Source: an uncultured Acidimicrobiales bacterium (GTDB lineage: Bacteria > Actinomycetota > Acidimicrobiia > Acidimicrobiales > SZUA-35). From it: a stretch of 64,000 bases of DNA. This document shows positions 1-31,855 of the stretch, piece after piece; position 1 is the first letter of the stretch, and every line of letters begins with the position of its first letter. Made by a program: the position numbers and the translations under genes. The DNA is taken from contig CAVRSZ010000001.1 in assembly GCA_963723995.1 (NCBI GenBank), positions 1,307,573 through 1,371,572 of the forward strand, in the 5' to 3' direction. A model generated the notes under the pieces. It was not told where the DNA came from and did no database searches. It was given only the letters and a program-made list of their open reading frames with translations.

Positions 1-450
1 CAGCCCGTCGTCCACCGGCCATCGTTCGCAATTCTCGGGGTGTTCGTTGGAGATCATGAGGATGCGGGTCCCGGCCTCCAGGATCGATGCCAGCTCGGGA
101 GCGTGGAGCAAACCCTCCACGGTGCAGTCGGCCACGAAGTCGGCGGCCCGCAGGGCGGCCATGGCCGCCGGATTGTCGTCGATGGCCACCGAAGCTCCGG
201 TGGACCGGATGGGCAACGGGCCGGGGTTGGGCGGCGTCGGCACCACCACCTCGACCGGAACCATCCCGAGGGAGGCCAGGGCCAGGCGGGCCGTCTCCAC
301 CACGATGGGTCGACTTCGGGTCTCCGACAGCACCACCGCCACCTCGCCGGCCGACACCCGGCACGCCTCGAACTGGCGGGCGTAGCGTTCGACCCACGGC
401 CACTCGATGCGATGGCCGCCTCCGATCCCGGCGTTGAGATCGCCGATCAT
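1..450 (-). CDS. Peptidase M29 / 2,5-dihydroxypyridine 5,6-dioxygenase (NicX)-like protein, 3' end outside the window
   Basis: Not in the ORF track. My translation from the ATG at 450 (ATGA overlap with the upstream stop at 447-449) gives MIGDLNAGIGGGHRIEWPW...VVLSETRSRP...PIRSTGAS...DCTVEGLLHAPEL...RILMISNEHPE, motifs I recognise from this family. Open to the window edge. Confidence 0.75.
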   Translation of the reverse strand, partial: MIGDLNAGIGGGHRIEWPWVERYARQFEACRVSAGEVAVVLSETRSRPIVVETARLALASLGMVPVEVVVPTPPNPGPLPIRSTGASVAIDDNPAAMAALRAADFVADCTVEGLLHAPELASILEAGTRILMISNEHPENCERWPVDDGL

Positions 451-1679
451 GCCGGCGACTCCAGGTCGGGATCGGCGTCGTCGCCGTCATCGGCGAACAG
501 CCCGGCCCGGCCGAGCCGATCCAGGCAGACCTCTACGCTCCACGGCAACATCGTGGCCCCGGCCCGCGAGTCCCGATAGTACTGCTCCAGGGGCGAAGGC
601 CGGAGCATGGACCGGCCGCCGCACACCCGGATGGCGGTGGAGGCCAGGGTCGGGGCGCCCTCCATGGTGGTGACCATCGAGCTCCACGCCCGGCGAACCG
701 CCGCCGGCGACGGGTCGACGCCGACCTCGCCCAGCACCCGATAGCACAGGGCCTGGGCCCGCTCGTATACCAGGTTCATCTCGGCCCAGCCCTGCTGCTT
801 GATGGGATGGCTCCGTCGGGCCCGAGGCCCTCCATCACCGATGAGGTAGGCGGCGGTGGCGTCCATGACGGCCCGCATCAGGCCCAGGTAGGCGAACGAC
901 AGTGTCATGTAGAAGTAGGGCCAACGTCGGGCCGCCTGATCGAACATGCCGGGGGGAATCCACTCGTTGTCGGCCGGCACGAACACGTCGTTCAGCACCA
1001 GATCCCGGGAATCGGTGGCCCGCATACCCAGGGGATCCCAGTCGCCCACCACCTCGACCCCCTCGCTGCCGGCCGGTACGCCGAGTAGCCGGACCCGGGG
1101 ATCGCCCTCGACCAGGCACACGATGTTGTGGACGTGGGCCGCGCTGCTGAGGGAGGCGAAGATCTTGCGCCCGGTCACCCGGTAGCCTCCGTCGACCGGC
1201 ACGGCCCGGGTGGCGTAGCCGGCGGTGGCACCGGCGGCCACGCCCTCGGAGAAGGGCTGGCTGTGGATCATGTGACGCTCGATGATGCCGGCCCGCAGTG
1301 TGTGGCGACGGCGGTGCAGGACCGTCCGTTCGTCGTCGGCGAGATCCATGTCATCGGCGATCTGGCCGGTGAGCAGGGTGGTGGCCACGTGCATGTTGAA
1401 CGTCAGGGCGGTGGCGGTGCAGTGGCGGCCCAGTTCCTCGGCCACCAGGGCGTAGCCCACGAAGTCCCCGCCCAGTCCGCCGCCGTCGACCGGGATGCAG
1501 ACTCCGAGCAGACCGGCGGCGGCGAAGTCCCGCCAGTTCTCGGTGGGGAATCCTGCGGTCCGGTCGTAGTAGGCCGATCGGGCGGCGATGTCGGTCCCGA
1601 GCGCGGCCATGCGTTCCACCAACGCCGCCCGCTCCGGGGTGAGGATGCCGTCGGCGTGGGCCAGATCTGTCAGGGTCAA
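447..1679 (-). CDS. Acyl-CoA dehydrogenase family flavoprotein (possibly a flavin-dependent monooxygenase component)
   Basis: FPTENW, GGLGG, GRKIFAS, WDPLGMRATDS and LEQYYRDSRAG motifs; ATGA overlaps at both ends. Confidence 0.85.
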   Translation of the reverse strand: MTLTDLAHADGILTPERAALVERMAALGTDIAARSAYYDRTAGFPTENWRDFAAAGLLGVCIPVDGGGLGGDFVGYALVAEELGRHCTATALTFNMHVATTLLTGQIADDMDLADDERTVLHRRRHTLRAGIIERHMIHSQPFSEGVAAGATAGYATRAVPVDGGYRVTGRKIFASLSSAAHVHNIVCLVEGDPRVRLLGVPAGSEGVEVVGDWDPLGMRATDSRDLVLNDVFVPADNEWIPPGMFDQAARRWPYFYMTLSFAYLGLMRAVMDATAAYLIGDGGPRARRSHPIKQQGWAEMNLVYERAQALCYRVLGEVGVDPSPAAVRRAWSSMVTTMEGAPTLASTAIRVCGGRSMLRPSPLEQYYRDSRAGATMLPWSVEVCLDRLGRAGLFADDGDDADPDLESPA

Positions 1680-2524
1680 TGCGTGTTCTCCCGGTTGTGG
1701 GGTGTGGGATCGCCGGCCGAATCGGGTTGGGCCAGGAACTCGAGCACCAGCCGGTTGAAGGTCTCCGGGTCTTCCGACGGACTCAGGTGACCGACTCCGG
1801 CCATGATCTCGAGCCGAGCCCGGGGCAGGCCGGCGGCCAAGGCCTCAGCGTAGGCCACGGGGGTCTCGGTATCGAGTTCGCCCACGACGACCAGGGCCTC
1901 CTGTTCGATCTCTGCCAGCCGGCCCCGCACGTCATGGTCGGGCAGGCACTCGACGGCAGCCCGCAGCCCGTCGGCGGGAATGCGGGCAAAGGCGGCTATC
2001 AGGTCGATCCGGATCTTGGGACCCAGTGGCCGACCGGCGATGGCATCGAGCACGTCGGAGGCCATCTCGGCCGGTGTCGATCCGCAATCGAGCGGCTGGA
2101 GCCGGGCCCGCTTCCAGCCCTCGGCCGAGGTGCCGTCCAGCCCGAAGGCGGGGCTGGTGTCGACGAGCACAAGCCGGCGTACCCGCTGGGGGTGTCGAAG
2201 CGCGCTGTGAAGGGCATGCATGCCACCGAAGCTCAGTCCCACCAGATCCACCGGCTGGTCGGGATCGACCCCTGCATCGTCCAGGAACTCGACCACCCGG
2301 TCGGCAAGGAGGGGGAAGGTCAGCTCAGCCTCCGGCTCGGCCTCCCCGTAGCCCGGCATGTCCCACGCGAGGCAACGGTGGTCGGCTCCAAGCACGGCCA
2401 GTTGGGGATTCCACGACTCACGGGTTCCCCCCAGCCCGTGAAGGAACGCGACGGGTGGACCGGCTCCGCACTCCCGCCATGCCGACCGGCCGCGTCTTCG
2501 GTCATGACAGATGGGCTCCTTCAT
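1676..2524 (-). CDS. Alpha/beta fold hydrolase
   Basis: FLHGLGG, WDMPGYG, nucleophile elbow GLSFGG, GELD and GHL catalytic motifs. Start moved to the ATG at 2524 (MKEP). Confidence 0.85.
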   Translation of the reverse strand: MKEPICHDRRRGRSAWRECGAGPPVAFLHGLGGTRESWNPQLAVLGADHRCLAWDMPGYGEAEPEAELTFPLLADRVVEFLDDAGVDPDQPVDLVGLSFGGMHALHSALRHPQRVRRLVLVDTSPAFGLDGTSAEGWKRARLQPLDCGSTPAEMASDVLDAIAGRPLGPKIRIDLIAAFARIPADGLRAAVECLPDHDVRGRLAEIEQEALVVVGELDTETPVAYAEALAAGLPRARLEIMAGVGHLSPSEDPETFNRLVLEFLAQPDSAGDPTPHNRENTH

Positions 2525-2561
2525 GTCGCCACTGTGCCACCTCGGTGGCCGCCTTCTGGCG

Positions 2562-2596
2562 CCGGCAGCTCCGAAAATCGGAGTTCCTGCCACCGG
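2562..2596. terminator. Intergenic hairpin (possible terminator or REP-like element)
   Basis: CTCCGA-AAA-TCGGAG core with imperfect outer CCGG-CAG / CTG-CCGG pairing. Confidence 0.35.
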
Positions 2597-2623
2597 AACC
2601 GCGATGAGCGGCGCATGCCGGGC

Positions 2624-3697
2624 CTACGACGGGGCCATTCGGTGGTGGACGACACCCCACTCGGTGCCGCCGTCGAAGCCGAACAGTTCCGAGCAGGCCA
2701 TCATGAACATACGCCACCGCTGAATCCAGCGTTTGGTGTCGGGCCCGTAGACCGGGCCCAGCACGGCCTCGATCCGGTTCCGATCGGCGTCGATGCGTTC
2801 GAGCCAGGCATCGAGGGTGCGAGCGTAGTGATGGCCCGGGTACCACCAGGTCCCCTCGACGACCAGACCGGTGTCGTACTCGGCGGCGATGCGGGGGAAC
2901 AGGTCGGCCGACGGCATAACCCCGCCGCTGAAGAAGTACCGGGTCATCCAGTTGGCCGAACCCTCGTCTTCGAACGGGTAGAAACGATCCCGGTGTGCGA
3001 AGACGTGCACATAGAACCGGCCGTCGTCGGTCAACAGGTCCCGCAGCCGGCCGAACAGGCGGCGATGATTGCGCACGTGCTCCAGCATCTCCACACTGAT
3101 GATCCGGTCGAATCGACCGTCGGCGGTCAGTCCCGCCCGATGCAGTCCGTTGACATCGACCACTCGATGCTCCACATTGGCCAGACCGGCGGCCGAGGCC
3201 CTGGCGGCGATGAACTCCCCCTGGGAGGCCGAGTTGGAGACGGCGAGCACGGTGGTCGCCGGGAACCGTTCGGCCACACGGAGGGCGATCGACCCCCAGC
3301 CACAGCCCAGGTCGAGCACCCGCATTCCTTCGGCCACACCGGCCTGATCGATGGTCCGGTCGAGCATGCGACGCTCGGAGGCTTCCAGATCGTCGCCCTG
3401 CTCCCACAACCCGGACGAGTACTTCAATCGGGGTCCGAGGATGAGTTCGAAGAAGGCGGCCGGCACCTCATAGTGCTGGCGGTTGGCCTCTTCGGGCACC
3501 AGGGCCACCGGCCCGCCCGACCAGGCCTCGAGCCATTGCCGACGCTCTTCGTCGCTCCGATCTCGCTCGACCGCCAGCCGGCGACCGATGGCGGCCCGCA
3601 TCCCGGCCCGGACCAGGCGGTCGGGCGCGCCTCGCTCCGCCGCCTCGATGCCGGCCCTGACTGCGTCGTCCACCACCCGTTCGAACACCGGGCTCAT
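2624..3697 (-). CDS. SAM-dependent methyltransferase, cyclopropane-fatty-acyl-phospholipid synthase family
   Basis: ANRQHYEVP, LGPRLKYSS, VLDLGCGWGS, SVEMLEHVRN, YFFSGGVMPS, WRMFMMACSELFG. Start set at ATG 3697. Confidence 0.85.
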   Translation of the reverse strand: MSPVFERVVDDAVRAGIEAAERGAPDRLVRAGMRAAIGRRLAVERDRSDEERRQWLEAWSGGPVALVPEEANRQHYEVPAAFFELILGPRLKYSSGLWEQGDDLEASERRMLDRTIDQAGVAEGMRVLDLGCGWGSIALRVAERFPATTVLAVSNSASQGEFIAARASAAGLANVEHRVVDVNGLHRAGLTADGRFDRIISVEMLEHVRNHRRLFGRLRDLLTDDGRFYVHVFAHRDRFYPFEDEGSANWMTRYFFSGGVMPSADLFPRIAAEYDTGLVVEGTWWYPGHHYARTLDAWLERIDADRNRIEAVLGPVYGPDTKRWIQRWRMFMMACSELFGFDGGTEWGVVHHRMAPS

Positions 3698-3746
3698 GAT
3701 GCCCCGGCCGCCGGCAGGGTGCGACATCGGGATTCCCGGCAACGGC

Positions 3747-4907
3747 TCAGCAGATACGGGGGAGCTGCTCACCGAGAGGGAGATCGACGACCCTGGTGGC
3801 ACCGAACGGGGTCTTGGCCACCACGATGCCGGGGTGGTCCTCGACTACCCGCCCGATCACGCAGGCCTGCCGGCCTTGAGGGTGGCCGGCCATGGCGGCC
3901 AGGACGATGTCGACGTCGGCCTCGGCCACCATGGCCAGAAGACGGCCCTCGTTGGCCACGCTGACCGGGTCGAGACCGAGGAACGAGCAGGCGGCTGCCA
4001 CCTCATCGGGCACCGGCAGCAACGACTCCTCATAGGCGATCCCGACCCCGGCGGTGCCGGCGATCTCGCACAGCGACGCCGCCACGCCACCCCGGGTCGG
4101 GTCCCGCAGCATGTGGATGTCGGCCACCTCGACCATGGCCGCCACCAGCCCGTTGAGGGGCGCCGAATCGGTGGCCAACGAGGTGCCGAAGGCCAGCCCC
4201 TCCCTTTGCGACATCACGGCCACGCCGTGAAGACCGATGGGACCACTGACGATGACCACATCACCGGGAGCGGCCCTGGTGGGGCGGATGTCGACACCGG
4301 CCGGGATGATCCCGATTCCGGTGGTGTTGATGTACAGACCCTCGTCGCCACGACCGGCCGATGGTGAACCGTCGATGATCCGGTCGATGACCTTGGTGTC
4401 GCCGGTGACCACCCTGACTCCGGCCGATCGTGCCGCCGCCCCCATCGACTCGACCACCCGGCCCAGCACCGCCAGCTTCAGCCCCTCGGTCAGGACGAAT
4501 CCGGCACTCAGGGCCACCGGTCGGGCCCCGGCCATCGAGACGTCGTTGACCGTACCGTTGACCGCCAGGTCGCCGATACAGCCGCCGGGGAAGAACAGGG
4601 GCCGCACCACGTAGGAGTCGGTGGAGAAGGCCAGCCGCTCCCCTGTGGCCAAACCTTCGCCCAAGACAACCGCTGCGTCGTGCAGCTCGACGGGCTCGGG
4701 GCCGGCGGTGTAAACGCCATCGTGGAACCCGGAGACGAAGGCGGGAAGGAACAGATGCTCGATGAGTTCGGCCGACATCCGCCCGCCCCCGCCGTGGCCC
4801 ATCACGATCCGGTCGTGATGGCGCAGCGGTAGCGGGCAGCTCCAATCGGCGAAGTCGGGAGCGGCCGGTCGGGTGGCAGCCGCTGCTCCGGGCCCGGGCT
4901 CAGCCAA
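3747..4907 (-). CDS. hypE: Hydrogenase maturation protein HypE
   Basis: [37 protein letters not shown] and C-terminal LPRIC. Probable TTG start at 4907 overlapping the hypD stop. Confidence 0.95.
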
Positions 4908-6033
4908 CGCCGACCTCGACCGGAGCACCGTCGAGCCGCCGGTACTGGTAGTAGGCGGCACACGCTCCCTCACTGGAGACCATGGTCGCCCCCAGCGGCG
5001 TCCTCGGCGTGCACTGGCCGCCGAAGGCCTCACACTCGATGGGCTTGATCAGGCCCTGCAGCACCTCACCGCTACGGCAGACGGCCGACTCCGGGGAGTC
5101 GATGGCGCCAACGTCGAACCGGGTTTCGGCGTCGAACTCGGCATAGCGATCGGACAGGCACCATCCACTGGCCGGGATCGTGCCGACACCCCGCCATTGG
5201 CGGTCACAGACGGTGAACACGTCGTCGACCATCTGCTGGGCCGGAACATTGCCCTTTTCGCTGACCACCCGGGGGTAGGCGTTGTCCAGCTCGGCCCGTC
5301 CCTCGACCAGCTGGGCCACCACCCGGCGGATGCCCTCCAGGACATCGAGCGGTTCGAACCCGGTTACCACGATGGGCAGACCGAACCGCTCGACCAGCGG
5401 TCCGTACTGCCAGGTCCCCATGACCGAACAGACGTGGCCGGCGGCCAGGAAGCCGTCGATCCGGCTGGTGGGCGACGAGGCGATGGCCTCCACTGCGGGG
5501 GGAACCAGCACATGGCTGACCAGGACCGAGAAGTTGTCGAGCCCCCGAGCCCGAGCCTGGTGGACGGCCATGGCGTTGGCCGGGGCCGTTGTCTCGAACC
5601 CGATGGCAAAGAACACGACCTGGCGATCGGGGTTGTCCTCGGCCAGGTTCACCGCGTCGAGGGGCGAGTACACGACACGAACATCGCCGCCCTCGCTGCG
5701 AACCGAGAAGAGGTCGCGGCCGGTTCCGGGCACCCGGAGCATGTCGCCGAACGAGCAGAAGATCACGTCCGGCCGGGAGGCGATGGCCAGGGCCTTGTCG
5801 ATCACGTTCAGCGGGGTGACACACACCGGGCACCCCGGACCGTGGATCAGTTCGATGGCGTCGGGCAGGAGTTGGTCGATGCCGTTGCGGATGATGGCGT
5901 GGGTCTGGCCCCCGCACACCTCCATGATGGCAAGGGGGGGCTCGCCGGCCGGTCGATCGGACACCAGCTGCTCGATGTGGGCCAGCAGGTTACGGGCGAG
6001 AGCCGGATCCCGGAATTCGTCGAGGTACTTCAT
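4900..6033 (-). CDS. hypD: Hydrogenase maturation protein HypD
   Basis: [38 protein letters not shown]. Confidence 0.97.
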
Positions 6034-6323
6034 CCTCCGCCCCCTCCGTCACCCGCCGCCGGCTCGATCGGTGCCGGTTCCGCTCCCAGTCCGTCCTCCA
6101 GGATCCCCAGTTCTGCGAACAGGGCCAGGGTCTCCAGAGCCGACGCCTCGTCGACCTTGGAGATGGCGAAACCGACATGGACGATGGCGTAGTCGCCGAC
6201 CTCGATGTCGGGCAGGTAGGCAAGGCAGATGTCCTTGTGGATGCCGTCGAAGTCGATGGTGGCCATCCTGGTCCCCCGCTCTTCACGGATGTCGACGATC
6301 TTTCCCGGTACTGCCAGACACAT
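6030..6323 (-). CDS. hypC: Hydrogenase maturation chaperone HypC
   Basis: N-terminus MCLAVPGK at ATG 6323; VHVGFAI motif. Confidence 0.96.
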
Positions 6324-6324
6324 A

Positions 6325-8793
6325 TCAGTGCTCCTGGTTCTGCTGAGGATCCTCGGGGTCGGGCTCGGCGAGGGCTCGGTGTAACCCAAGATAGGCCTGG
6401 CCCAGGGCCAGACCTCCATCATTGGGCGGTACCACGTGGTGGGTCAAGAGCTTGATGGCGCGTCCGGAACCGTCGATGACATGACCCAGCGCGTCCAGGC
6501 ACAATCGGGTGGCCAACACGTTCTGGAACACCCCACCGGACAACACCACGGCATCGACCTCCCCCTCGGCCGGAAACGACTCGGCCAGCAGGGTCTGGGC
6601 CAGCGTGGCCACCACCTCGGCCACGGCCTGGTGGAACCAACGGGCGATCATGCCGACCGGCCGGCCGCGACCCAGATCGGCCATGATCTCCACCAGGATC
6701 GGGCCGGGGTCGATGACGATCGGCTCGTCGAGGTCGGACCGGACCAGGCCGAACCGGTACCGGTGGCCGGGATCACCGATCGCCGACTCGGTCCCGGTGG
6801 CGGCCACAGCCTCGGTGTCGGGCATGGTCCCAGCCACCGTCTCGGCATCGCTCGCCGCGATCTCCAGCTCGATGGCGGCCTGGGCTTCGTAGCTGATGGT
6901 GTGGCGCAAACCGATCAGCGACGACACAGCGTCGAACAACCGACCCATGCTGGTGGTGGGTACACACGCCACGTCGCCGTCCAGTTGGGCCCGGAGCAGG
7001 GCGACCTCACGGTCATCGGCCCACCGGGCGGGCCGGCTGCCGGGCCAGTCGATGCCGGCCGAGTGGAGGTGGGCCAGGGCTACCCGCCACGGGTTGGCGA
7101 TGGCGGCATCGCCACCGGGAAGCGGGATCGGTGCCAGGTGGGCCACCCGGGTCAGGTCGGTCACCGGACCGGCGAACACCTCACCTCCCCAGATGGTGCC
7201 GTCGTCGCCGTAGCCGGTGCCGTCGAAGGCAAACCCGACCACCCGCGTCGTCGGCGAAAGGCCGGCCTCGGCGACCACGGCGGCGACATGGGCCCGATGG
7301 TGCTGGACGTCGAACACCGGCTCCGGTCGGCGGCGAGCCCAGCCCGACGACAGGTATCCGGGATGGGCGTCGGCCACCAGCCGTTCGGGGACCACGTCGT
7401 AGAGGCGGGTGAACCGCTCGACGTTGGCCTCCACGGCCTCGAGGGTGGCCAGATTCTCCATGTCCCCCAGATGCTGGCTGACCCAGGCCCGCCCCCCGGC
7501 GGCCAGGCAGAACGTGTTCTTCAGCTCGGCCCCGACAGCCAGAAGCGGCGGCCCGAAGGGCACCGCCACCGGAATCGGTGCGTAGCCACGGGCCCGGCGG
7601 ACCGGCAGCAGCCGGTCTCCCATGACCCGAACCACCGAGTCGTCGCAGGGCGAGGCCACGGGGCGGTCGTGGTCGAGCAGCCCGTCGTACAGTGGGGCCA
7701 GGGCGTCGATCCCGGCCCGGTCGCTTACCAGGGGCTCGCCCGAGACATTGGCGCTGGTCATGACCAGCGGCCGATCGAGCTCGGCGGACAGTAGGTGGTG
7801 GACCGGGGTGTAGGGAAGCATCAGCCCGACCAGGGGGTTGCCGGGAGCCACCTCGGCTGCCAGGAGCCGATCCGGTCGGACTCGGACCAGCACGATGGGG
7901 GCGGCCGGGGAGGCGAGCAGATCGGTCTCGGACCGGTCGATCACGGCCAACCGGCCGGCCTGGTCGAGGTGGGCCACCATCACCGCCAACGGCTTGTCGG
8001 GACGGTGCTTGCGTCGGCGTAGTTCGGCCACCGCTCGGCTGTCGGTGGCGTCACAGGCCAGGTGATAGCCCCCAAGGCCCTTGATGGCGACAATGCCGCC
8101 GTCGGCCAGCATGGCCGCTGCGGGCCGAATCGGATCGGCATCATCGATGCCGGACCGGCCCGAACGCCGATCCTCGAACCACAATCTCGGACCGCAGTCA
8201 TGGCAACCGATGGGCTGGGCGTGATAGCGGCGGTCACCGGGATCGCGGTATTCGGCTCGGCAGGCGTCACACAGATCGAAGCCGGCCATGGTGGTGGCAG
8301 CCCGGTCATAGGGCAGATCGGTGATGATGGTGAAGCGGGGACCGCAGTTGGTGCAGGTGATGAACGGGTGGTGGTGGCGCCGGTCGACCGGATCGAACAG
8401 CTCGGCCAGGCATTCGGCACAGACCGCGGTGTCGGGTGGGACGAGGGTTCTGGCCCCGTCGGCTGTGGCGCTGGCCACGATTCGAAACACCGGCTCGGCC
8501 CCGGGATCGGGGGCCAGCGTCGATCGACGAACCTCGGTGATCCGAGCCAGCGGTGGACTTTCGTCGACCAGGCGTCGGGCGAAGCGATCCACCGCCTCCG
8601 CCGACCCGGCGATCTCGATGAAGACCTTGGCCGAGTCGTTGCCGACATGGCCCGACAAGCCCAGTTCAGTGGCCAGGCGGTGGACGAAGGGGCGAAAGCC
8701 CACCCCCTGGACCACACCGGTCACCTCGACCCGCTCCCTGACCGTCGCCGGCGACCCGGGTGATTGCGCAAGCCTCTCGGATGCTGCCGTCAT
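6325..8793 (-). CDS. hypF: Carbamoyltransferase HypF
   Basis: GVVQGVGFRPFV acylphosphatase domain, CxxC zinc fingers (CTNCGPRF, CHDCGP), KGLGGYHLACDA, FDGTGYG, PPNDGGLALGQ. Confidence 0.97.
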   Translation of the reverse strand: MTAASERLAQSPGSPATVRERVEVTGVVQGVGFRPFVHRLATELGLSGHVGNDSAKVFIEIAGSAEAVDRFARRLVDESPPLARITEVRRSTLAPDPGAEPVFRIVASATADGARTLVPPDTAVCAECLAELFDPVDRRHHHPFITCTNCGPRFTIITDLPYDRAATTMAGFDLCDACRAEYRDPGDRRYHAQPIGCHDCGPRLWFEDRRSGRSGIDDADPIRPAAAMLADGGIVAIKGLGGYHLACDATDSRAVAELRRRKHRPDKPLAVMVAHLDQAGRLAVIDRSETDLLASPAAPIVLVRVRPDRLLAAEVAPGNPLVGLMLPYTPVHHLLSAELDRPLVMTSANVSGEPLVSDRAGIDALAPLYDGLLDHDRPVASPCDDSVVRVMGDRLLPVRRARGYAPIPVAVPFGPPLLAVGAELKNTFCLAAGGRAWVSQHLGDMENLATLEAVEANVERFTRLYDVVPERLVADAHPGYLSSGWARRRPEPVFDVQHHRAHVAAVVAEAGLSPTTRVVGFAFDGTGYGDDGTIWGGEVFAGPVTDLTRVAHLAPIPLPGGDAAIANPWRVALAHLHSAGIDWPGSRPARWADDREVALLRAQLDGDVACVPTTSMGRLFDAVSSLIGLRHTISYEAQAAIELEIAASDAETVAGTMPDTEAVAATGTESAIGDPGHRYRFGLVRSDLDEPIVIDPGPILVEIMADLGRGRPVGMIARWFHQAVAEVVATLAQTLLAESFPAEGEVDAVVLSGGVFQNVLATRLCLDALGHVIDGSGRAIKLLTHHVVPPNDGGLALGQAYLGLHRALAEPDPEDPQQNQEH

Positions 8794-10739
8794 TGCCGCC
8801 GGGCCGACTCGAGATCGTGGGCCGGCACCATGAACCCGTCGAAGAATGCGGCCAGCTCGTCGAAACCGTCGAGCGGCAGAACGTGGGCCACATGTTGGTC
8901 GGGACGCACGATCACCATTGCCCCGAACTCCCTGTCGAGCTGTCGATGATCGAAGATGTCGGGGCCGCGGATGACATCGGGGCAGAAGACCTTGTGATAG
9001 TCGACGAGGCCGTAGCGACCCTTGGTCGGCCGCAGCAACGGGGGGACGTCACCGATGACCAGCTCACGGTGACTCTGCTGGAGCACGGCCCGCACGTCGA
9101 TGACGGCATCGACATCGGCCCCGGACGGCGTGAAACGCGCGACGGGTGACGCCGGATCGTCCCGGAGGAGCCGACACAGCATGGCCAGCCGGGAACCGTC
9201 GTCGTCCGGCCGGGCACGATCGGCAAACAGGACGACCCGCCACCGGCCATCGGCGGTCGCGGTGTGACCGAGGTGCATCGGTTTGGCGTCGGCCAGCCGG
9301 ATCACGGGAGCGGAATGGAAGCGGGTGCCGATGACAAACCCCCGGGCCAAGGATTGATGGAAACCGTCGCCGGTCACCACGGACGGCTCGTAGCGGGTGG
9401 CCACACCCGCCGTGAATCGCCCGTGCTGCTGGAAGTACCGTTGAAACTCGTCGGGATCGACGCCGCCCTCGTCGTCGGAGGTCCTTGGCCGGGCGCTGAA
9501 CAGTCGGGCCAGTTCGCGGTCGAAATCGATGAGCTCCTTGGCTACGGCCCGTCGCTCGGCCGAGTAGGTGTGCAGCAGCTCGGGCCTGGACCGGCCGGTC
9601 AACACCGACGCCAGTTTCCAACCCAGGTTGAAGCCATCCCGCATCGACACATTCATTCCTTGTCCTGCTTTGGGACTGTGAGTGTGGCAGGCATCGCCGG
9701 CGATGAACACCCGGGGCAACCGAATGTCGGTCTCTGCGGCGGGTACGTCGTCGAACTTGTCGGTCAGGCGCTGGCCGATCTCGTACACCGACCACCAAGC
9801 CACCTCATGAACCTCGACGGTGTAGGGGGCGAGAATACGATTGGCCTCGGCGACCAGTCGCTCGATCGTGATGTCGCGGTCGGCTGCCCGTTCATTCTCG
9901 CGGAGCTTGTCCAGCTCGATGTACAAACGGACGAGGTAGCCGCCCTCTCGGGGGATGATCACCATGTTGCCCCCGTTGGCCGAATACACCAGCGACTTGA
10001 ATCGGATATCGGGGAAGTCGGTGACAGCCAGGACATCCATGACCCCCCACGCCTGGTTGGCCGTGTCGCCGGTCAAGGTCCGACCGATGGATGTCCGAAC
10101 GGTGCTTCTGGCGCCGTCACAGCCGACCACATAGTGGGCCCGCATCGTCTCGATCTCACCGGTGTGGGCGTCATCGGTGCGCTCGAATCGGGCCGTGATC
10201 GGTACGGCCGGATCGTCGGGGCGGTCCAGCCCGATCAGGCGACGGCCGTAGTCGGGTGTCAACCCACTCGGGCCCTCGGCCATGAAGCCGAGGAAGAAGT
10301 CGTGGACCCTGGCCTGGTTCAGAATCACGTGGGGGAACTCGGACAGTCCGTCCTCGACATCCTGAATACGGTCGCTACGACAGATCCGATGGGGGGCGGC
10401 GGGATCCGGCTTCCAGAAGACGGTCTCGTTGACCCAGTACGCCTCCTTCATCACCTTGTCGGCGAACCCGAAGGCGTTGAACATCTCCATGCTCCGGCAG
10501 GCGATCCCGTCGGCCTGGCCCAAGCGAAGGGGCCCATCCTTGAGGTCGACGATGCACACCGACAGAGTCGGGAACACCGACAGTTGGGACGCCAGGGTCA
10601 GGCCGGTCGGACCGCAGCCGACGATCAACACATCGACGTCGGAGGGAAGGCGACGTCGACCCACCGGAGGTGGCAACGCCGCCTCGGGATCGACGATGGC
10701 CGGATCCCCCGGCCTGAATCCATTGAGATGAAACTCCAC
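8790..10739 (-). CDS. FAD-dependent aromatic monooxygenase (phenol 2-monooxygenase / 3-hydroxybenzoate hydroxylase family)
   Basis: GTG start giving MEFHLNGFRPGDP; GCGPTG Rossmann motif, GQADG, GCDGARS, IAGDACHTHSPKAGQGMN, C-terminal thioredoxin-like VRPDQHV. ATGA overlap with hypF. Confidence 0.9.
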   Translation of the reverse strand: MEFHLNGFRPGDPAIVDPEAALPPPVGRRRLPSDVDVLIVGCGPTGLTLASQLSVFPTLSVCIVDLKDGPLRLGQADGIACRSMEMFNAFGFADKVMKEAYWVNETVFWKPDPAAPHRICRSDRIQDVEDGLSEFPHVILNQARVHDFFLGFMAEGPSGLTPDYGRRLIGLDRPDDPAVPITARFERTDDAHTGEIETMRAHYVVGCDGARSTVRTSIGRTLTGDTANQAWGVMDVLAVTDFPDIRFKSLVYSANGGNMVIIPREGGYLVRLYIELDKLRENERAADRDITIERLVAEANRILAPYTVEVHEVAWWSVYEIGQRLTDKFDDVPAAETDIRLPRVFIAGDACHTHSPKAGQGMNVSMRDGFNLGWKLASVLTGRSRPELLHTYSAERRAVAKELIDFDRELARLFSARPRTSDDEGGVDPDEFQRYFQQHGRFTAGVATRYEPSVVTGDGFHQSLARGFVIGTRFHSAPVIRLADAKPMHLGHTATADGRWRVVLFADRARPDDDGSRLAMLCRLLRDDPASPVARFTPSGADVDAVIDVRAVLQQSHRELVIGDVPPLLRPTKGRYGLVDYHKVFCPDVIRGPDIFDHRQLDREFGAMVIVRPDQHVAHVLPLDGFDELAAFFDGFMVPAHDLESARRQ

Positions 10740-10829
10740 GGCCTGGAACCTCTGGTGAGCAGGCTGGGACAACGCTACACCGGCAATGGACGCCGAATGC
10801 AACTCTGCGACCGCCAGTAGGCTCCGAGA

Positions 10830-11210
10830 GTGCACGAACTCTCGTTGTGCGGAGCCATCATGGAGACCGTGGCCGACCACGCCGATGGCCGACCGGTCCG
10901 CTGCGTCAACCTCACGATCGGGCACTTTCGTCAGGTCGTACCGGACACGCTGCAATTCTGTTGGCAGGCCCGGACGGCGGGAACCGGCTTCGAGGGCTGT
11001 GAACTCCATGTCGACTACGTGCCGGCCACCGTGTCATGCCGGGAGTGCGGCACCACGACCACGTTGGTCCATCCCATCCTGCGGTGTGGAAGCTGCCAAT
11101 CCCTCGACGTAGTGTTGGAAAGCGGTGAGGAGTTCGTGATCGAGTCCTTCGACCTGGCCAACGGCTCCACCGACCCCGAGACGGCTGGGACATCCGAGGA
11201 GAACCCCTAG
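10830..11210 (+). CDS. hypA: Hydrogenase nickel metallochaperone HypA
   Basis: MHELSL N-terminus, two CxxC motifs (CREC, CGSC), SGEEF. Confidence 0.95.
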   Translation: MHELSLCGAIMETVADHADGRPVRCVNLTIGHFRQVVPDTLQFCWQARTAGTGFEGCELHVDYVPATVSCRECGTTTTLVHPILRCGSCQSLDVVLESGEEFVIESFDLANGSTDPETAGTSEENP

Positions 11211-12019
11211 TGGGCCGATTTCATCGACACGCCGACGGCACGGTACATACCCACGACCACGATGACCACGGGCATGACCAGACCCATTCCCACTCCGGCA
11301 CCGGCAGGCGGGATGTCGGCGACCATTCCGGCTACGAGACCGGCATCGATCGGATCATGGTGCTGGAGCAGATCCTGGGCGAGAACGATCGCACGGCGGC
11401 GGCCAACCGCACCGATCTGGCTCGGCGCAACATCCGGACCATCAACCTCATGTCGTCGCCGGGGGCGGGCAAGACCACCCTGCTGACCAGAACGATTCCG
11501 GCCCTGGCTGACGACTACCGCATTGGAATCGTCGAGGGCGACATCGCCACCAGCCTGGATGCCGATCAACTGAGCGACCTCGGCGCCCAGGTGGCGCTGG
11601 TCAACACCAACGCCGGCTTCGGCGGTGAATGTCATCTGGACGCCACCATGGTCAGGGCCGGGCTCACGCGACTCGATCTCGATGCCCTTGACCTGATCAT
11701 CATCGAGAACGTGGGCAATCTCGTCTGTCCGGCTGAATTCGACGTCGGCCAGGACGCCAGGGCCATGGTCTACGCCGTCACCGAGGGCGAGGAGAAACCG
11801 CTCAAGTATCCGGTCATGTTCCGAGCCGTCGACGTGGTGGTGGTCAACAAGATCGACCTGCTCCCCCACCTTCGGTTCGATCTCCATGCATTTCGATCCA
11901 ACCTCGATGCCGTCAATCCCGGTGTCGCCGTGATCGAGGTCAGCGCCGAGACCGGTGCGGGCCTCGACCTGTGGCTCGACTGGCTTCGGTCGGTTGCCAC
12001 CGCCCCGCCCGGCACCTAG
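11210..12019 (+). CDS. hypB: Hydrogenase nickel incorporation GTPase HypB
   Basis: His-rich N-terminus, SSPGAGKTT, ECHLDA, ENVGNLVCPAEF, KPLKYP, NKIDL. Confidence 0.96.
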   Translation: MGRFHRHADGTVHTHDHDDHGHDQTHSHSGTGRRDVGDHSGYETGIDRIMVLEQILGENDRTAAANRTDLARRNIRTINLMSSPGAGKTTLLTRTIPALADDYRIGIVEGDIATSLDADQLSDLGAQVALVNTNAGFGGECHLDATMVRAGLTRLDLDALDLIIIENVGNLVCPAEFDVGQDARAMVYAVTEGEEKPLKYPVMFRAVDVVVVNKIDLLPHLRFDLHAFRSNLDAVNPGVAVIEVSAETGAGLDLWLDWLRSVATAPPGT

Positions 12020-12140
12020 ACGGTCTTTGGCGAGGAGGTGGCCGACTTGATTCTGCGAATGTTGCCGGCCGACCCAGAGGGCCTCAACGCCGTTCGTGAC
12101 CAATTATTCACCGGTGCAACGCCTCGGGACGGCGAGCAGA

Positions 12141-13571
12141 TCATGTCCGACGGCTGAGTTCGTCCTGGGCTCGAACGATGGCCCGGCGAAGTCGATCGAC
12201 GACCAAGTCGATCTCGGCTCGGTTGATGACCAACGGCGGCGACATGACGTTCAGATTGTCGATGGGACGCACGATGAGGCCGAGCCGGTCGGCCTCGCTG
12301 GAGACCAGCTTGCCCACCCCGACATCTTCGGGATGGGTCCGTTTGGTTGTCTTGTCAGCCACGAACTCGACGCACGCCATGAGATGCGAGCCTCGAACGT
12401 CGCCCACCATGGGAAGGTCATGCAGGGTGTGGAGCTGTTCGATGAAGTAGGGCCCGACGTCGCGGACATGCTGGAGGAGGTTCTCCCGCTCCATGATCTC
12501 GATGTTCTTGAGCGCGGCGGCGCAGCACACCGGATGACCGGAATAGGTGTAGCCGACGGCGAAATAGCGCCCGTGACCCCGATCGGAGATGGCATCGAAA
12601 ATCCGATCGCTGAACAGCATCGCCCCCAGCGGGAGGTAACCCGACGTCAGGCCTTTGGCCGAGATGATGATGTCGGGCTGGATCCCGAAAACGCGCTCGG
12701 AGGCGAACCACTGGCCGAGACGGCCGAATCCGGTCACCACCTCGTCGGACACGTAGAGGATGTCGTGATCGCAACAGAACTGCCAGATTCGCTGTAGGTA
12801 GTCGGCCGGTGGAACGATCACGCCACCGGAACCCATGATTGGTTCGGCGAAAAAGGCGGCTACCTTACCTGGTCCACCGAGTTCGGCCACCTTGGCCTCG
12901 AACTCGGCCACCAGATCATCGGCGAACTCCTGCTCGCTGCGTTCACCCCCATGCCGATAGTGGTTGGGTGAACTGAGATGGTGGATGATGTCGTCGATGA
13001 ACTCGAATTCGGGCGGGCGGTCCCCCGGCTTGCCCCCGATGGAGACGGCGGCGTAGGTGGTTCCGTGATAGGCGTCGACACGGGAGAGTATGTGACGCTT
13101 CTGGTGGAGGCCCCGGGCGTGTTGATAGAACTGAACCAGGCGAAACGCGGCGTCAACCGCAGTCGAGCCTCCCGTGGTGAAGAACACGTGGTTGATGGGA
13201 GCAGGGGCGAGTTCGACCAACCGCTCGCTGAGTTCAACCGCCGGGATGTTGGTCATGTCCACGAACGGGTTGGCGTACGCCAGCCGTCGCACCTGCATGG
13301 CGATGGCCTGGGCCATTTCCTCCCGCCCCAGACCGATATTGGTACACCACATCCCACCGACGGCGTCGATGTAGTCGTTGCCATCGGCATCCATGAGGTG
13401 GACCCCGGAGCCCTGGGCTATGGGGAGGACGGGTTCGTCGAGGTAGGTGTCGAAGACCTGGTAGGGGTGGACGAGATACTGCTGATCGGAGGCGACGAGG
13501 CGAGCCGTGTCGATCGACGCCGGATCGACGGTCGGATCGCTCGGCTCGGCTGGGGACGAGGGCTGGGACAT
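12141..13571 (-). CDS. Class III PLP-dependent aminotransferase (omega-amino acid/polyamine type)
   Basis: DAVGGMWC, YHG, FAEPIMGSGGVI, DEVVTGFGRLG, PLP lysine in SAKGLTSGYLPLG. Confidence 0.9.
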   Translation of the reverse strand: MSQPSSPAEPSDPTVDPASIDTARLVASDQQYLVHPYQVFDTYLDEPVLPIAQGSGVHLMDADGNDYIDAVGGMWCTNIGLGREEMAQAIAMQVRRLAYANPFVDMTNIPAVELSERLVELAPAPINHVFFTTGGSTAVDAAFRLVQFYQHARGLHQKRHILSRVDAYHGTTYAAVSIGGKPGDRPPEFEFIDDIIHHLSSPNHYRHGGERSEQEFADDLVAEFEAKVAELGGPGKVAAFFAEPIMGSGGVIVPPADYLQRIWQFCCDHDILYVSDEVVTGFGRLGQWFASERVFGIQPDIIISAKGLTSGYLPLGAMLFSDRIFDAISDRGHGRYFAVGYTYSGHPVCCAAALKNIEIMERENLLQHVRDVGPYFIEQLHTLHDLPMVGDVRGSHLMACVEFVADKTTKRTHPEDVGVGKLVSSEADRLGLIVRPIDNLNVMSPPLVINRAEIDLVVDRLRRAIVRAQDELSRRT

Positions 13572-15400: not shown

Positions 15401-16000
15401 ATGAGTCGACAACCTTCACGACCGCGGTTGAGTCGGGATGCGCTCACTACGGTCGCGCTGCTGCTGGTGGACGAGTCGGGGTACGACGCCCTGACCCTCT
15501 CGGCGGTGGCCGAGCAGCTCCAGGTCGGGCCTTCCGCCCTCTACACCCACTGCGGGGGTCTCGACGGTCTACGTCATGTGACGGCAGTGGCCGCCACCAA
15601 CAACCTGGCGGGCCATGTCCGTCAGGCAGCCATCGGCACCGCCGGCGGCGACGCGGTCAAAGCCGTGGCCCACGCCTACCGCGATTTCACCCTCGATCAT
15701 CCCGGCCAGTTCGCCGCCACGCTCCGCCCACCCCGGGCCGACGACGACGAGCTGGTCGAGGCCGATCAGGCCATCACCGATGTGTTTGCCCTGGTCTATG
15801 TCGCCATGGGAATGACGCCGCCCGAATCGACCCTTGCCGCCCGCAGTATCCGATCGGCCGTCCACGGCTTCCTGGCCCTGGAACACAACAGCGGTACCAC
15901 CGAGACCTGCGCCGACGACTACCAGCACCTTCTCGACACCGTGCATCATGGCATCAGCGAGCGGTACTTCGCCGACGTGGAGGGCCCTGCACCGGACTGA
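15401..16000 (+). CDS. TetR family regulator with WHG-type C-terminal domain
   Basis: HTH LTLSAVAEQLQVGPSALYTH; AYRDFTLDHPG; RSAVHGFLALE. Confidence 0.85.
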   Translation: MSRQPSRPRLSRDALTTVALLLVDESGYDALTLSAVAEQLQVGPSALYTHCGGLDGLRHVTAVAATNNLAGHVRQAAIGTAGGDAVKAVAHAYRDFTLDHPGQFAATLRPPRADDDELVEADQAITDVFALVYVAMGMTPPESTLAARSIRSAVHGFLALEHNSGTTETCADDYQHLLDTVHHGISERYFADVEGPAPD

Positions 16001-16612: not shown

Positions 16613-18763
16613 ATGACCGTCGACCATCGTGATATCGCGTCGAGCGACGCCCGTGCCGACCCCGGCGCCGGGCCCGGCCAGATCTCTCCGACCAAGCTGC
16701 TGGAGCACATCAGTCGGGCCCAGCGGGACTTCATCCTCGACGGCGATGCCCGCGAGGTTTTCAGTCGTCTGCTGGACGGCATTCTGGACATCACCGCCAG
16801 CGAATACGGCTTCATCGGCGAGACCGAGCCCGGCGACGACGGAAGACCGGTGCTTCGGACCTGGGCCATCACCAATATCGCCTGGACCGACGAGTTGGCC
16901 CAATGGTTCGAGAAGAACAACCCCAACGGGCTGATGTTCGAGAAGCTGGAAACCCTGTTCGGGGCGGTGCTCACCGAGGGCGAGCCCGTCATTGCCAACG
17001 AGCCCGGCACCGACAGCCGCCGGGGCGGTTTGCCCGAGGGTCATCCCCCGCTTCTTGCCTTCCTCGGACTCCCGTTTCTCCTCGGAGGCGAGGTCGTCGG
17101 CATGGTCGGCCTGGCCAACCGGGTCGGTGGGTACAACTCGGAGCTGGTCGAACAGCTCGAGCCGTTCGCCGCAACCTGCGTCAGTTTGATCGGTGCCCTG
17201 CGGGCCGGGCGGGAACGGGACATGGCCAACTCGGAGCGCCGGCAACGGATCGCCGAGACGGCCACAGTACTGGAGTCGGTGGCCGACGCCGTGGTCGTGG
17301 TCGATGAGCTGGGCGTGATTCGTACCTACAACCGGGCGGCCGAAACCACCTTTGGCTACTCGGCCAAGGAGGCCATCGGGCAGAGGATCACACTGCTGAT
17401 GCCCGATGAGCTGATCCCGCCACCTGACGTGCTGGCCGACCACGATCGGCTACGGCGGTATGTCGAGCGTGGTGTGCAGCCGTTTCTCGGTATGAGGCAG
17501 GAGGTGTTCGCCCGCCGCAAGGACGGCACCGTGTTTCCCATGGAGCTGATCGTCAGCGAGGTCGTCAGTCCCGATGCCACCATGTTCGTGGGGACATGCC
17601 GGGATCTCACCAGCAGGCACCTCGCCGCCACCGAACTGCAGATGTATGCCGGCACGATCGAAGCCACTCCCGACTTCGTCGGGGTCGGCACCGCCGACGG
17701 GACCGTGTTGGCCATCAACGAGGCGGGCCGTCGGCTGATCGGATTCCCCCTCGACGAGCCGATCATGAACCTGCAAATCGGTGATGTCCACACCGATGCG
17801 TCACGCCGGCTGGTGGTCGAGGTCGGGCTGCCGACCGCTCTTCGCCAAGGTTCGTGGTCGGGCGAGACCGAGTTCCGGCGACCGAGCGGCGGGGTGATTC
17901 CCATGTCCCAGGTCATCATGGTCAGCCGGGACGCCCACGGCCATCCCCGCTATGTGTCCACCATCGCCCGCGATATCAGCGAAGCCAAGGAGGTGGAGCG
18001 ACTCAAGACCGAGTTCGTGTCCACTGTGTCCCACGAGCTGCGAACGCCGCTCACCTCCATCCGGGGATCGCTCGGCCTGCTCACCGGAGGGGTGGCCGGA
18101 CAGCTGCCGGAGCAGGCGGCGTCGATGATCCAGCTCGCCCTGTCCAGTACGGAGCGGCTGATCCGGCTGGTCAACGACATCCTCGATCTGGAAAAGGCCG
18201 AGACCCAGAGGCTGGGCTTCGAGATGCGGCAGCTGCGACCGGGCGAACTGGTCAATGCCACCATCGACGCCATCGCCGGGCTGTCGGAGGAAGCCGATGT
18301 CGCCGTCGTGGTCGAGGGACTGAACCGGCCGGTGGCCGACGCCACGTTCCTGGGCGACATCGATCGGCTGGTCCAGCTGCTGGTCAACCTGATCGCCAAT
18401 GCCATCAAGTTCTCCCCCCCGGGGGACACGGTCACCGTGTCGCTGTCGGTCACGCCCGATGGAACGCTCCGCATCTCGGTCTCGGACAATGGATGCGGCA
18501 TCGACGAGACCCATCTCGAGACGGTCTTCGAGCCGTTCCGCCAGATCGATTCATCGGATCGTCGCCGTGTTGGGGGTACCGGATTGGGCCTGGCCATTGT
18601 CCGGGCCATCGCCGAAGGCCATCACGGCTCGGTCACCGTCCGGAGCACCGTCGGGGTCGGTTCCACCTTCACCGTGCGACTGCCGACGATCGATCCTCGG
18701 GAATCAGGCGATCACGAAGCCGCTGCTGCTCGGCCCGATACTCGGCTACACGCCTCACCTTGA
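16613..18763 (+). CDS. Soluble GAF-PAS-PAS sensor histidine kinase
   Basis: GAF (GGLPEGHPPLLAFLGLP), PAS/PAC (ARRKDGTVFPMEL), H-box SHELRTPLTSI, N-box NAIKFS, DNGCGI, GGTGLGLAI. Confidence 0.92.
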   Translation: MTVDHRDIASSDARADPGAGPGQISPTKLLEHISRAQRDFILDGDAREVFSRLLDGILDITASEYGFIGETEPGDDGRPVLRTWAITNIAWTDELAQWFEKNNPNGLMFEKLETLFGAVLTEGEPVIANEPGTDSRRGGLPEGHPPLLAFLGLPFLLGGEVVGMVGLANRVGGYNSELVEQLEPFAATCVSLIGALRAGRERDMANSERRQRIAETATVLESVADAVVVVDELGVIRTYNRAAETTFGYSAKEAIGQRITLLMPDELIPPPDVLADHDRLRRYVERGVQPFLGMRQEVFARRKDGTVFPMELIVSEVVSPDATMFVGTCRDLTSRHLAATELQMYAGTIEATPDFVGVGTADGTVLAINEAGRRLIGFPLDEPIMNLQIGDVHTDASRRLVVEVGLPTALRQGSWSGETEFRRPSGGVIPMSQVIMVSRDAHGHPRYVSTIARDISEAKEVERLKTEFVSTVSHELRTPLTSIRGSLGLLTGGVAGQLPEQAASMIQLALSSTERLIRLVNDILDLEKAETQRLGFEMRQLRPGELVNATIDAIAGLSEEADVAVVVEGLNRPVADATFLGDIDRLVQLLVNLIANAIKFSPPGDTVTVSLSVTPDGTLRISVSDNGCGIDETHLETVFEPFRQIDSSDRRRVGGTGLGLAIVRAIAEGHHGSVTVRSTVGVGSTFTVRLPTIDPRESGDHEAAAARPDTRLHASP

Positions 18764-21700: not shown

Positions 21701-22319
21701 GGCCGGTGGCCCGGGACATGGCGATCCCGTGGAGCCCCAGTTCCAGACATTCGGCCACCGTGGCCGGATAGAGGATCGGCATATGGAGATCGACCAGGGC
21801 GGCATCGGACGATGACGGCATGGTCGACGACTTCGCCGACGGGTCGTCGCCGACCAGGGCCAGGGCGCCACCGGTGGCGCTGGAGCCGGCGAAGACTCCG
21901 TGGCGAAGGGCGTCGGTGGCCCGATCAAGGCCGGGTGCCTTGCCGTACCACACGCCGACCACACCGTCATAGCGACAGTCGCTTCTGGTTGCGGCCAGCT
22001 GCGAACCCATGACGGCGCTGGCCCCCAGTTCCTCATTGACCGCCGGGAGATGGGTGATCGGAAGTTCGGGGCCGATGATCCGCAACGCTTTGGCCAGTTC
22101 GAGATCGAATCCTCCCAGCGGCGAGCCGGGGTAGCCCGAGACGAACGCCGCTGTGTTTCGCCCGGCGCGCCGGTCACGCCGGATTTGCTCGATGGGGACA
22201 CGGGCCAGGGCCTGGACCCCGGTGAGAAACACCATGCCGTCGTCGGCCCGATACCGATCGGCCAGGTCGTAGTCATGGGCCGGAGATCTCCGGCCGATCT
22301 TGATGTCGTCCACGGACAT
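18669..22319 (-). CDS. Fused indolepyruvate:ferredoxin oxidoreductase family protein
   Basis: SGYPGSPLGG, WYGKAPGLDR, YFCSGCPHN, GDGTFFHSG (TPP), CEGCGDC, GIGGTGVVT, KLMAYKDEYEVARL. Confidence 0.92.
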   Translation of the reverse strand: MSVDDIKIGRRSPAHDYDLADRYRADDGMVFLTGVQALARVPIEQIRRDRRAGRNTAAFVSGYPGSPLGGFDLELAKALRIIGPELPITHLPAVNEELGASAVMGSQLAATRSDCRYDGVVGVWYGKAPGLDRATDALRHGVFAGSSATGGALALVGDDPSAKSSTMPSSSDAALVDLHMPILYPATVAECLELGLHGIAMSRATGLWSALKVVTAVADGNGTVHLPALDREPIVPTLDIDGRRWLPHPSAQFLGPRMVEVEREFHEIRTVLALRYGIENELNQVPADPADAWLGVVATGFTFGEVLEAFRRLGFESRQAIADAGIRLLNLRMPVPFDRDLVAHFARGLEQIFVVEEKNPTLERLVRDALYATTMRPQVVGKEDAEGNSLLPSYGQLDGDVIEPALRTRLEPRLTDRLAPPSPPAPSRPPLTVQRAPYFCSGCPHNWGTKVPDGAVVGMGTGCHGMTLLMDPERVGDSIGITAMGNEGAQWLGMAPFVETKHVFQNFGDGTFFHSGQLAIQAAIGAGANVTFKILYNHTVAMTGGQDASHSVGPVELAAILLAHGAGKVVITTDDTSLYSRRSRRYRGSRVPSTVSVHDRTELVELQRQLAGIPGVTVIIHDQACAAELRRARKRGLAPTPRTRVVINHRICEGCGDCGDVSNCLSVQPVDTPLGRKTWIDQAGCNYDYSCLKGDCPAFMTIEVDGRDPSQSDNRVLPDPSVIAVEEPQPASDTAVVRLAGIGGTGVVTVAQVIATAAMLDGHRVSGLDQTGLSQKAGPVISDVIIHPGGAVAHRSNLAGRAQADLLLAFDLMVAAADGALGALSPRTVVLASTTQTPTGRQITDPGLSDRGTVAERLRGAIDRDPDFTVDAAETAGIVTGVAATANMILVGAALQSGRLPVSLHSLRQAVQLNGVAVEANLAALEWGRRLWADAAAANRELARWSSGSDGGLRIDVDRLSARLAAEVEQAVAGIAPNDRDRAIIEMLVADLVDYQDEAYARRFLRLVARGAATGHVALTMATARGFHKLMAYKDEYEVARLMTKADGLAPAKRLATSAPPPPADNTTASLTPDPPLPAITWHLHPPILKPMLSRVGYGGKVRIPAAAAPAFRALARGKRLRGTRFDPFGMTAMRRLERELVDDYEAVVGSMLDRISSTPVIPESDMGAALALARLPEMVRGFEELKVRRVAEYRAEQQRLRDRLIPEDRSSAVAR

Positions 22320-22405
22320 CTCACCAGAGTAGATCAGCCACCGACAATCAGTCGGATGATGAAGTCGACTCGAGATGTTCATCTCGTCGAGCTACGATCT
22401 GCCGG

Positions 22406-31742: not shown

Positions 31743-31763
31743 GGCAACTCTCCTACGCTCCTC

Positions 31764-31799: not shown

Positions 31800-31855
31800 T
31801 GGGAAGCGGTGCGGGGGGGAGGCGCCGCGGGGAGGCAGTGACTCGGGGGGGTCGG

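Follow-up and report, generated by a model that had tools for sequence, protein, structure and literature searches.

Does an aromatic hydroxylase encoded among hydrogenase maturation genes serve hydrogenase maturation, or did it come to stand there by chance? The question is raised by a stretch of 64,000 nt from an uncultured Acidimicrobiales bacterium (hereafter the window; contig C1:1307573-1371572), in which a flavoprotein monooxygenase gene lies between hypA and hypF and its stop codon overlaps the hypF start. The parent genome, G000, comprises 5.8 Mb in 8 contigs and is 94% complete. A first-pass annotation of the window had left the choice between a functional link, framed as one between H2 oxidation and aromatic hydroxylation, and a clean insertion. 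The latter has fared better, and is better described as a lineage-specific juxtaposition, given that the pairing was found only in G000 and a congener, G015. We consider it likely that an ordinary MobA-type hydroxylase gene was placed before hypFCDE by a rearrangement in the common ancestor of these two species, with no functional coupling implied.

Identity and distribution of the monooxygenase

Open reading frames on the minus strand were chosen by third-position GC and Pfam matches. The longest frame of the monooxygenase (8790-11009, 739 aa) overruns hypA, and the GTG at 10739 opens a 649-aa protein whose N-terminus, MEFHLNGFRPGDP, matches residue 1 of MobA (MQFHLNGFRPGNP) and the G015 orthologue. 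Because the longer frame crosses hypA and this GTG aligns with MobA residue 1, we placed the gene at 8790-10739; the end coordinate of 10830 given in the first-pass annotation is the start of hypA. The annotation's description of a 649-aa gene of the phenol/3-hydroxybenzoate-hydroxylase type between hypA and hypF agrees with the reading frame, the Pfam domains and the alignment to MobA.

Pfam assigned to the protein FAD_binding_3 (PF01494, 7e-63, residues 34-406) and the phenol-hydroxylase C-terminal dimerisation domain (PF07976, 1e-55, residues 448-640), which is thioredoxin-like, and thus both domains that define a MobA-type enzyme are present. The sequence also contains GCGPTG, CDGARS and GDACHTHSPKAGQGMN, which we take to be FAD fingerprints. 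Among NCBIfam models, PRK08294 'phenol 2-monooxygenase' (NF006144) scored 1030.3 bits against a cut-off of 560, and the next family reached 198 bits, under its own cut-off. Both libraries returned aromatic hydroxylase families only and no known maturation family (HypA-F, HupK, endopeptidase etc.). The best solved structure was MobA of Comamonas testosteroni (2DKH; E 8.6e-263, 877 bits, residues 1-637 on 1-637), with the yeast phenol hydroxylases far behind (E 1e-121), and a Halomonas homologue is 63% identical. The enzyme is thus an ordinary group A flavoprotein monooxygenase of the MobA type, and its similarity to MobA makes 3-hydroxybenzoate 4-hydroxylation (presumably EC 1.14.13.23) the best functional guess. 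The family name 'phenol monooxygenase' given by annotation pipelines is misleading, because the 3-hydroxybenzoate 4-hydroxylase (3HB4H) of Pseudarthrobacter phenanthrenivorans Sphe3, which is 49-52% identical to MobA and likewise annotated 'phenol 2-monooxygenase', is reported to form protocatechuate from 3-hydroxybenzoate, using either NADH or NADPH, and to be inactive on phenol (PMC13653839).

We then compared the setting of the gene across the genus, using 24 other species genomes and a match threshold of E <= 1e-50. The monooxygenase was present in 15 of the 24 (one match being a fragment), and hyp genes adjoined it (loci of +/-1.5 kb) in only one of these 15, G015, whose protein is 92% identical. 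No hyp genes lay near it in any of 11 other congeners, whose loci were viewed with ~7-9 kb of flanking DNA either way, or as far as the contig reached. Seen from the maturation genes, HypF occurred in 11 of the 24 congeners, and at the 10 loci examined the monooxygenase accompanied it in G015 only. The gene order of G015 is identical to that of G000 (hypB-hypA / monooxygenase-hypF-hypC-hypD-hypE-methyltransferase-hydrolase-acyl-CoA dehydrogenase), and ~14 kb are syntenic. G006 and G018, two congeners whose genomes are closed or nearly so, have orthologues of the monooxygenase, hypF, the methyltransferase and the hypB-flanking aminotransferase, all of them ~0.08 to >2 Mb from one another. Five congeners share another context, in which an enoyl-CoA hydratase gene and an unknown gene are divergent from the monooxygenase and a DAO-type oxidoreductase, and an AMP-ligase gene is convergent (identified by Pfam in G001, G019 and G018, and by matching reading-frame sizes only in G004 and G003). 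This set hints at a CoA-thioester route, which would bear on the true substrate of the clade. At three of these loci (L046, L052 and L053, of G001, G018 and G019) the unknown protein has 390-400 aa, and the other members are a DAO-type FAD oxidoreductase and an AMP-dependent ligase. The remaining congener contexts are all unlike one another.

Nor did the pairing recur in wider searches. The best 80 monooxygenase loci in genome_contigs (52-68% identical, nearly all from Pseudomonadota) included none with a Hyp gene within 6 kb, and the best 80 in metagenome_contigs none within 4 kb. Conversely, a monooxygenase lay within 4 kb at 1 of 63 HypF loci in genome_contigs, and its coordinates and identities are those of the G015 locus. 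The first-pass annotation had proposed a neighbourhood search across Actinomycetota; in an even draw of 400 other genomes of this phylum, 10 carried the monooxygenase family (one of them, G307, being an unpublished genome) and none of the 10 paired it with hyp genes, HypD being present in three of them on another contig or 1.6 Mb away. Among the titles and abstract openings listed in a literature search, none described a monooxygenase-hypF pairing. A hyp accessory gene would be expected to lie beside hyp or hydrogenase genes in one lineage after another, and this was not observed. The annotation had also raised the case of an adjacency unique to this assembly, which the locus narrowly escapes since G015 shares the pairing. 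Yet the two are immediate sister species and are syntenic over all of the ~14 kb, and we therefore attribute the shared pairing to inheritance and not to selection. The pairing appears, from these comparisons, to be an ordinary lineage-specific juxtaposition.

A maximum-likelihood tree of 88 monooxygenase sequences (partial loci L105, L107, L118, L121, L124 and L126 dropped; L021, L022 and L057 left out) paired G000 with G015 (SH-aLRT 100) inside a genus-only clade of 12 rows (SH-aLRT 99), which comprised 11 congeners and a record identical to one of them. One congener, G014, fell outside the genus clade. Because the gene lies inside the genus clade, it is an inherited orthologue that changed place, and a fresh horizontal import was ruled out by the same position. 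Between G000 and G015 its dN/dS was 0.14 at a dS of 0.30, with neighbouring genes at 0.13-0.33; it is a working gene under purifying selection in both species.

The junction with hypF and the control regions

The G000 junction reads caATGAcg, with the hypF ATG at 8793-8791 and the monooxygenase TGA at 8792-8790. Downstream of this ATG the frame has no further ATG, GTG or TTG before the HypF acylphosphatase domain enters its first strand, so that the ATGA overlap noticed in the first-pass annotation is real; the 90-bp divergent gap between the monooxygenase and hypA was likewise recovered. The junction in G015 is different: the monooxygenase has a longer, unrelated tail that ends in TAA, and ~65 nt separate it from hypF, with GAGG six bases before the hypF ATG. 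Two alignment gaps of 38 and 106 columns make up this difference. MobA ends two residues past a conserved F-M, and both tails are for this reason taken as unconserved additions. The ATGA overlap is peculiar to G000.

A 191-nt stretch that includes the hypA/monooxygenase gap is 95% identical between G000 and G015, compared with 91-93% for the adjoining coding DNA, which is at most a hint of conserved control signals. In a scan of 6000-12200, neither the space from the monooxygenase to hypF nor the 90-nt gap contained a promoter or terminator site, by an E. coli-like consensus that is a poor model for high-GC Actinomycetota, and no inverted repeats were found in 10720-10850. On the spacing of the genes, the monooxygenase promoter probably accounts for at least part of the transcription of hypFCDE in G000, and the 4-nt overlap makes co-transcription of the monooxygenase with hypF plausible. 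A possible but somewhat doubtful alternative is that hypFCDE have their own promoter within the 3' portion of the monooxygenase coding sequence, so that the overlap has no regulatory consequence. The ~65-nt spacer of G015, with its own GAGG, would permit independent initiation there, and a substrate-induced catabolic promoter seems ill suited to housekeeping maturation genes, given that a homologue is reported to be induced ~2000-fold on 3-hydroxybenzoate (PMC13653839). Against such an internal promoter, no sigma-70-like site was found in 8500-11300, where again the E. coli-like consensus may not be that of the host, and the G000 junction has neither a spacer nor a terminator-like site.

We also considered whether the monooxygenase and hypF had been misjoined in assembly. 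Logan contigs from four sediment-metagenome runs were mostly 130-760 nt long; one X1 contig spans 10762-10947, across the hypA start, without differences, but none of the four runs has a contig that bridges 8790, and 8792-9400 is without X1 cover. Missing cover is all that speaks for a misjoin. Against it stand the identical gene order in the G015 assembly, a composition that shows no break at the junction, and two intact reading frames with a precise overlap. A misjoin is extremely unlikely.

Hydrogenases, the predicted product and a possible functional link

A search with PF00374 found two hydrogenase loci in G000, neither of them near the hyp genes. On contig C2 (230000-249000, L173), five adjacent genes have Pfam families matching HoxE, HoxF, HoxU, a small subunit and a large subunit, a build that we take to be that of a group 3d NAD-linked hydrogenase of the HoxEFUYH type. 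On contig C8 (86000-105000, L172), genes for a Fer4_22 protein, an NAD_binding_1 protein, a small subunit and a large subunit presumably encode a group 3b hydrogenase of four subunits. The 'H2 oxidation' framing of the first-pass annotation is thus a poor fit, as the hydrogenases found in the genome are confined to these NAD(P)-linked enzymes of the group 3b-like and 3d-like kinds. For the group-1h-like large subunit of the congener G024, no orthologue was found in G000 or G015; it gave only matches of 29-33%, located at these hydrogenase loci and at a further short open frame at a contig start in G015. HypF had a single match in G000. Elsewhere in the genus, a second and more distant hypF lineage (40-48% identical) was seen at L040, L041 and L044 (G006, G002 and G019), followed by a CbiA/ParA-type ATPase gene and facing a family-5 solute-binding ABC transporter, a context unlike both that of G000 and that of the 1h type.

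The predicted product of the hydroxylase has a candidate route elsewhere in the genome. Contig C7 (414000-433000, L171) encodes a LigB-type dioxygenase (273 bits), a GFO/IDH/MocA-type dehydrogenase, two Amidohydro_2 proteins, an RraA-like aldolase, PrpF and a PobA-like hydroxylase (Pfam), families that match the protocatechuate 4,5-cleavage pathway and that we take to correspond to the LigAB, LigC, LigI/LigJ, LigK and LigU/GalD set. Because a profile search of the G000 genome did not find the intradiol dioxygenase PF00775, protocatechuate would be expected to enter the 4,5-cleavage route, and the C7 cluster, judged by its gene content, can take it. A separate site lies ~5 kb before the window start (C1:1300800-1302650; L170 10824-12653), where a gene for a weak LigB-family dioxygenase (72 bits) adjoins a P450 fragment of 300 aa that holds the C-terminal part only (profile positions 324-432), with a MarR-domain protein and an acetoacetate-decarboxylase-family gene nearby. 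Possibly these genes form a small cluster that modifies aromatics, or one that has decayed.

With these data a functional link can be weighed, in which the hydroxylase is expressed with the Hyp proteins to the benefit of hydrogenase, through use of NAD(P)H from the group 3b/3d enzymes, lowering of O2 during cofactor assembly, or modification of a quinone or phenolic cofactor. Several observations favour such a link and weigh against an uncoupled juxtaposition. The only hypF found in G000 is joined to the monooxygenase through ATGA, with no spacer or obvious ribosome-binding site of its own, and its expression may depend on the monooxygenase gene, in which case the two would be linked in regulation even if not in biochemistry. 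The two hydrogenases found are of NAD(P)-linked types and the monooxygenase consumes NAD(P)H, so that in chemical terms a link through reductant supply is conceivable. Two species have retained the pairing over a dS of ~0.2-0.5, with a 90-nt promoter region that is better conserved (95%) than the flanking coding DNA (91-93%); this is weakly compatible with a conserved shared control region, but the ~14-kb block as a whole is equally syntenic. The assumed substrate is also put in question, since the orthologue in five congeners sits with enoyl-CoA hydratase, DAO-type oxidoreductase and AMP-ligase genes, which is not a classical 3-hydroxybenzoate context, and Pfam shows no regulator of the MobR kind beside the gene in G000.

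Nevertheless, we regard a functional link as very improbable, because the pairing recurs nowhere else: it is missing from all other monooxygenase or hypF loci examined. Moreover, G015 does not share the ATGA overlap, the enzyme is orthologous to a catabolic hydroxylase, without modification, and has other contexts in congeners, and the pathway for its predicted product is encoded elsewhere in the genome. Group A flavoprotein monooxygenases perform one turnover per NAD(P)H and are poor O2 scavengers without substrate, which argues against a role in lowering O2. Very improbable, too, are the bolder forms of the idea, namely that hypF is translationally coupled to the hydroxylase and the maturation of NAD(P)-linked hydrogenase slaved to the hydroxylase promoter, or that the hydroxylase was recruited to spend hydrogenase-derived NAD(P)H in an H2-driven aromatic hydroxylation.

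The lineage-specific juxtaposition can be accounted for as follows. The 1h-type cluster, which in other congeners includes hypFCDE, would have been lost by the ancestor of G000 and G015 or would never have been part of its genome, and in this lineage, unlike other congeners, the hyp genes stand away from any hydrogenase cluster. By rearrangement, hypFCDE would then have come to follow a catabolic hydroxylase gene already resident there, and hypAB to lie facing that gene. Lastly, either G000 would have undergone a small deletion or G015 an insertion, whence the difference in spacer and the overlap of the G000 stop codon with the hypF start, and hypFCDE of G000 would receive read-through from the monooxygenase promoter. 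The monooxygenase itself would use NAD(P)H and O2 to convert 3-hydroxybenzoate, or a close analogue, to protocatechuate, destined for 4,5-cleavage by enzymes encoded on another contig. In this account, the identity of the gene, its overlap with hypF, the narrow distribution of the pairing, the vertical descent, the purifying selection and the existence of a protocatechuate pathway are shown by the data, and the substrate, the order of the rearrangement events and the co-transcription are what we infer.

Neighbouring genes and comparison with known systems

The features of the locus are collected in Table 1. The DNA is high in GC (62-72% in 1-kb windows over 1-22000). On the minus strand, the monooxygenase gene is followed by hypF, hypC, hypD, hypE and genes for a CMAS-type methyltransferase, an alpha/beta hydrolase and an acyl-CoA-dehydrogenase-like protein; hypA and hypB are on the plus strand, divergent from the monooxygenase. 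The hypF stop is 1 nt from the hypC ATG, and hypC and hypD overlap by 4 nt. In agreement with the first-pass annotation, Pfam matches in the window placed no ring-cleavage gene or dedicated regulator directly beside the monooxygenase, the nearest regulator being a TetR gene at 15401-16000.

Table 1 Positions of the monooxygenase, the hyp genes and the genes that trail them in the window.
Feature	Position	Strand	Basis
MobA-type flavoprotein monooxygenase, predicted 3-hydroxybenzoate 4-hydroxylase	8790..10739	-	649 aa, GTG start; PF01494 + PF07976
ATGA overlap, monooxygenase stop / hypF start	8790..8793	-	Sequence; not conserved in G015
Divergent intergenic region monooxygenase/hypA, presumed promoter region for both	10740..10829	.	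90 nt; coordinates
hypF	6325..8793	-	822 aa; Pfam acylphosphatase, 2 x zf-HYPF, Sua5/YrdC, HypF_C, HypF_C_2 (all five HypF domains)
hypC	6030..6323	-	PF01455 from residue 34 of long ORF; translation
hypD	4900..6033	-	PF01924, 1.7e-150
hypE	3747..~4928	-	AIRS + AIRS_C; start uncertain, longest ORF to 5033
hypA	10830..11210	+	PF01155, 2.3e-27
hypB	11210..12019	+	PF02492 CobW/HypB/UreG
CMAS-type SAM methyltransferase	2624-3802	-	Pfam; NCBIfam below cut-off
Alpha/beta hydrolase	1676-2593	-	Pfam; NCBIfam below cut-off
Acyl-CoA dehydrogenase-like	447-1679	-	Pfam; NCBIfam below cut-off

The last three genes of the table trail hypE in the same direction, closely packed or without any gap, and the methyltransferase frame, when read from its longest start, shares 56 nt with the end of hypE. 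This block (447..3802) is syntenic in G015 only, and its orthologues are elsewhere in other congeners. The alpha/beta hydrolase was tried as PcaD and rejected as a member (115 bits against a cut-off of 256). An Rfam scan of the whole window gave no match at the gathering threshold. Further along the window, a 1237-aa 2-oxoacid:ferredoxin-oxidoreductase-like protein (TPP_enzyme_C, POR, DUF6537) is encoded beside a divergent Lrp/AsnC regulator (18669-22858), and pyruvate phosphate dikinase, a 1231-aa pyruvate:ferredoxin oxidoreductase (PFOR) and a DHO_dh-like gene lie at 28998-37188; together these genes give carbon metabolism an unusually ferredoxin-centred cast for an aerobe-like actinobacterium.

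The locus illustrates that a tight, even overlapping, gene junction can arise by recent rearrangement, and that operon-like spacing seen in one genome does not by itself testify to a common function, for which it would have to recur in independent lineages. As it stands, the finding matters little; if the co-transcription is true, the locus would show in nature, on a small scale, how a catabolic promoter can capture essential maturation genes. It is of modest use for hydrogenase surveys of uncultured Acidimicrobiia, as G000 yielded group 3b-like and 3d-like hydrogenases and no group-1h-like one, has its hyp genes apart from the hydrogenase structural genes and carries a protocatechuate 4,5-cleavage cluster.

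The closest known enzyme to the monooxygenase is MobA (2DKH/2DKI), with which it aligns from end to end, with the same build of FAD-binding and C-terminal dimerisation domains and a common N-terminus, M(E/Q)FHLNGFRPG. It differs from MobA in 12 extra, unconserved C-terminal residues, and its gene differs in being without an adjoining MobR-type regulator and in standing in front of hypF; its substrate is a predicted one. Sphe3 3HB4H is likewise actinobacterial, of the same family and encoded by a substrate-induced gene, a likeness at the level of the family and not of directly compared sequences, and the accessible portion of its report mentions no hyp neighbourhood (PMC13653839).

For the maturation genes, the nearest counterpart is the group-1h-like cluster of G024 and G018, in which hypFCDE close a series of genes for a small subunit (seen in G018), a large subunit, HycI (G024), NifU/Rieske proteins (G024) and an NHL-repeat protein. 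We take this layout to be that of actinobacterial loci for group 1h high-affinity hydrogenase. The two arrangements share the hypF-hypC-hypD-hypE order and the tight spacing, and their HypF proteins are 52-62% identical. In G024 and G018, however, hypF follows the NHL-repeat gene behind the structural genes, whereas in G000, where those genes were not found, it is a catabolic hydroxylase gene that stands before hypF.

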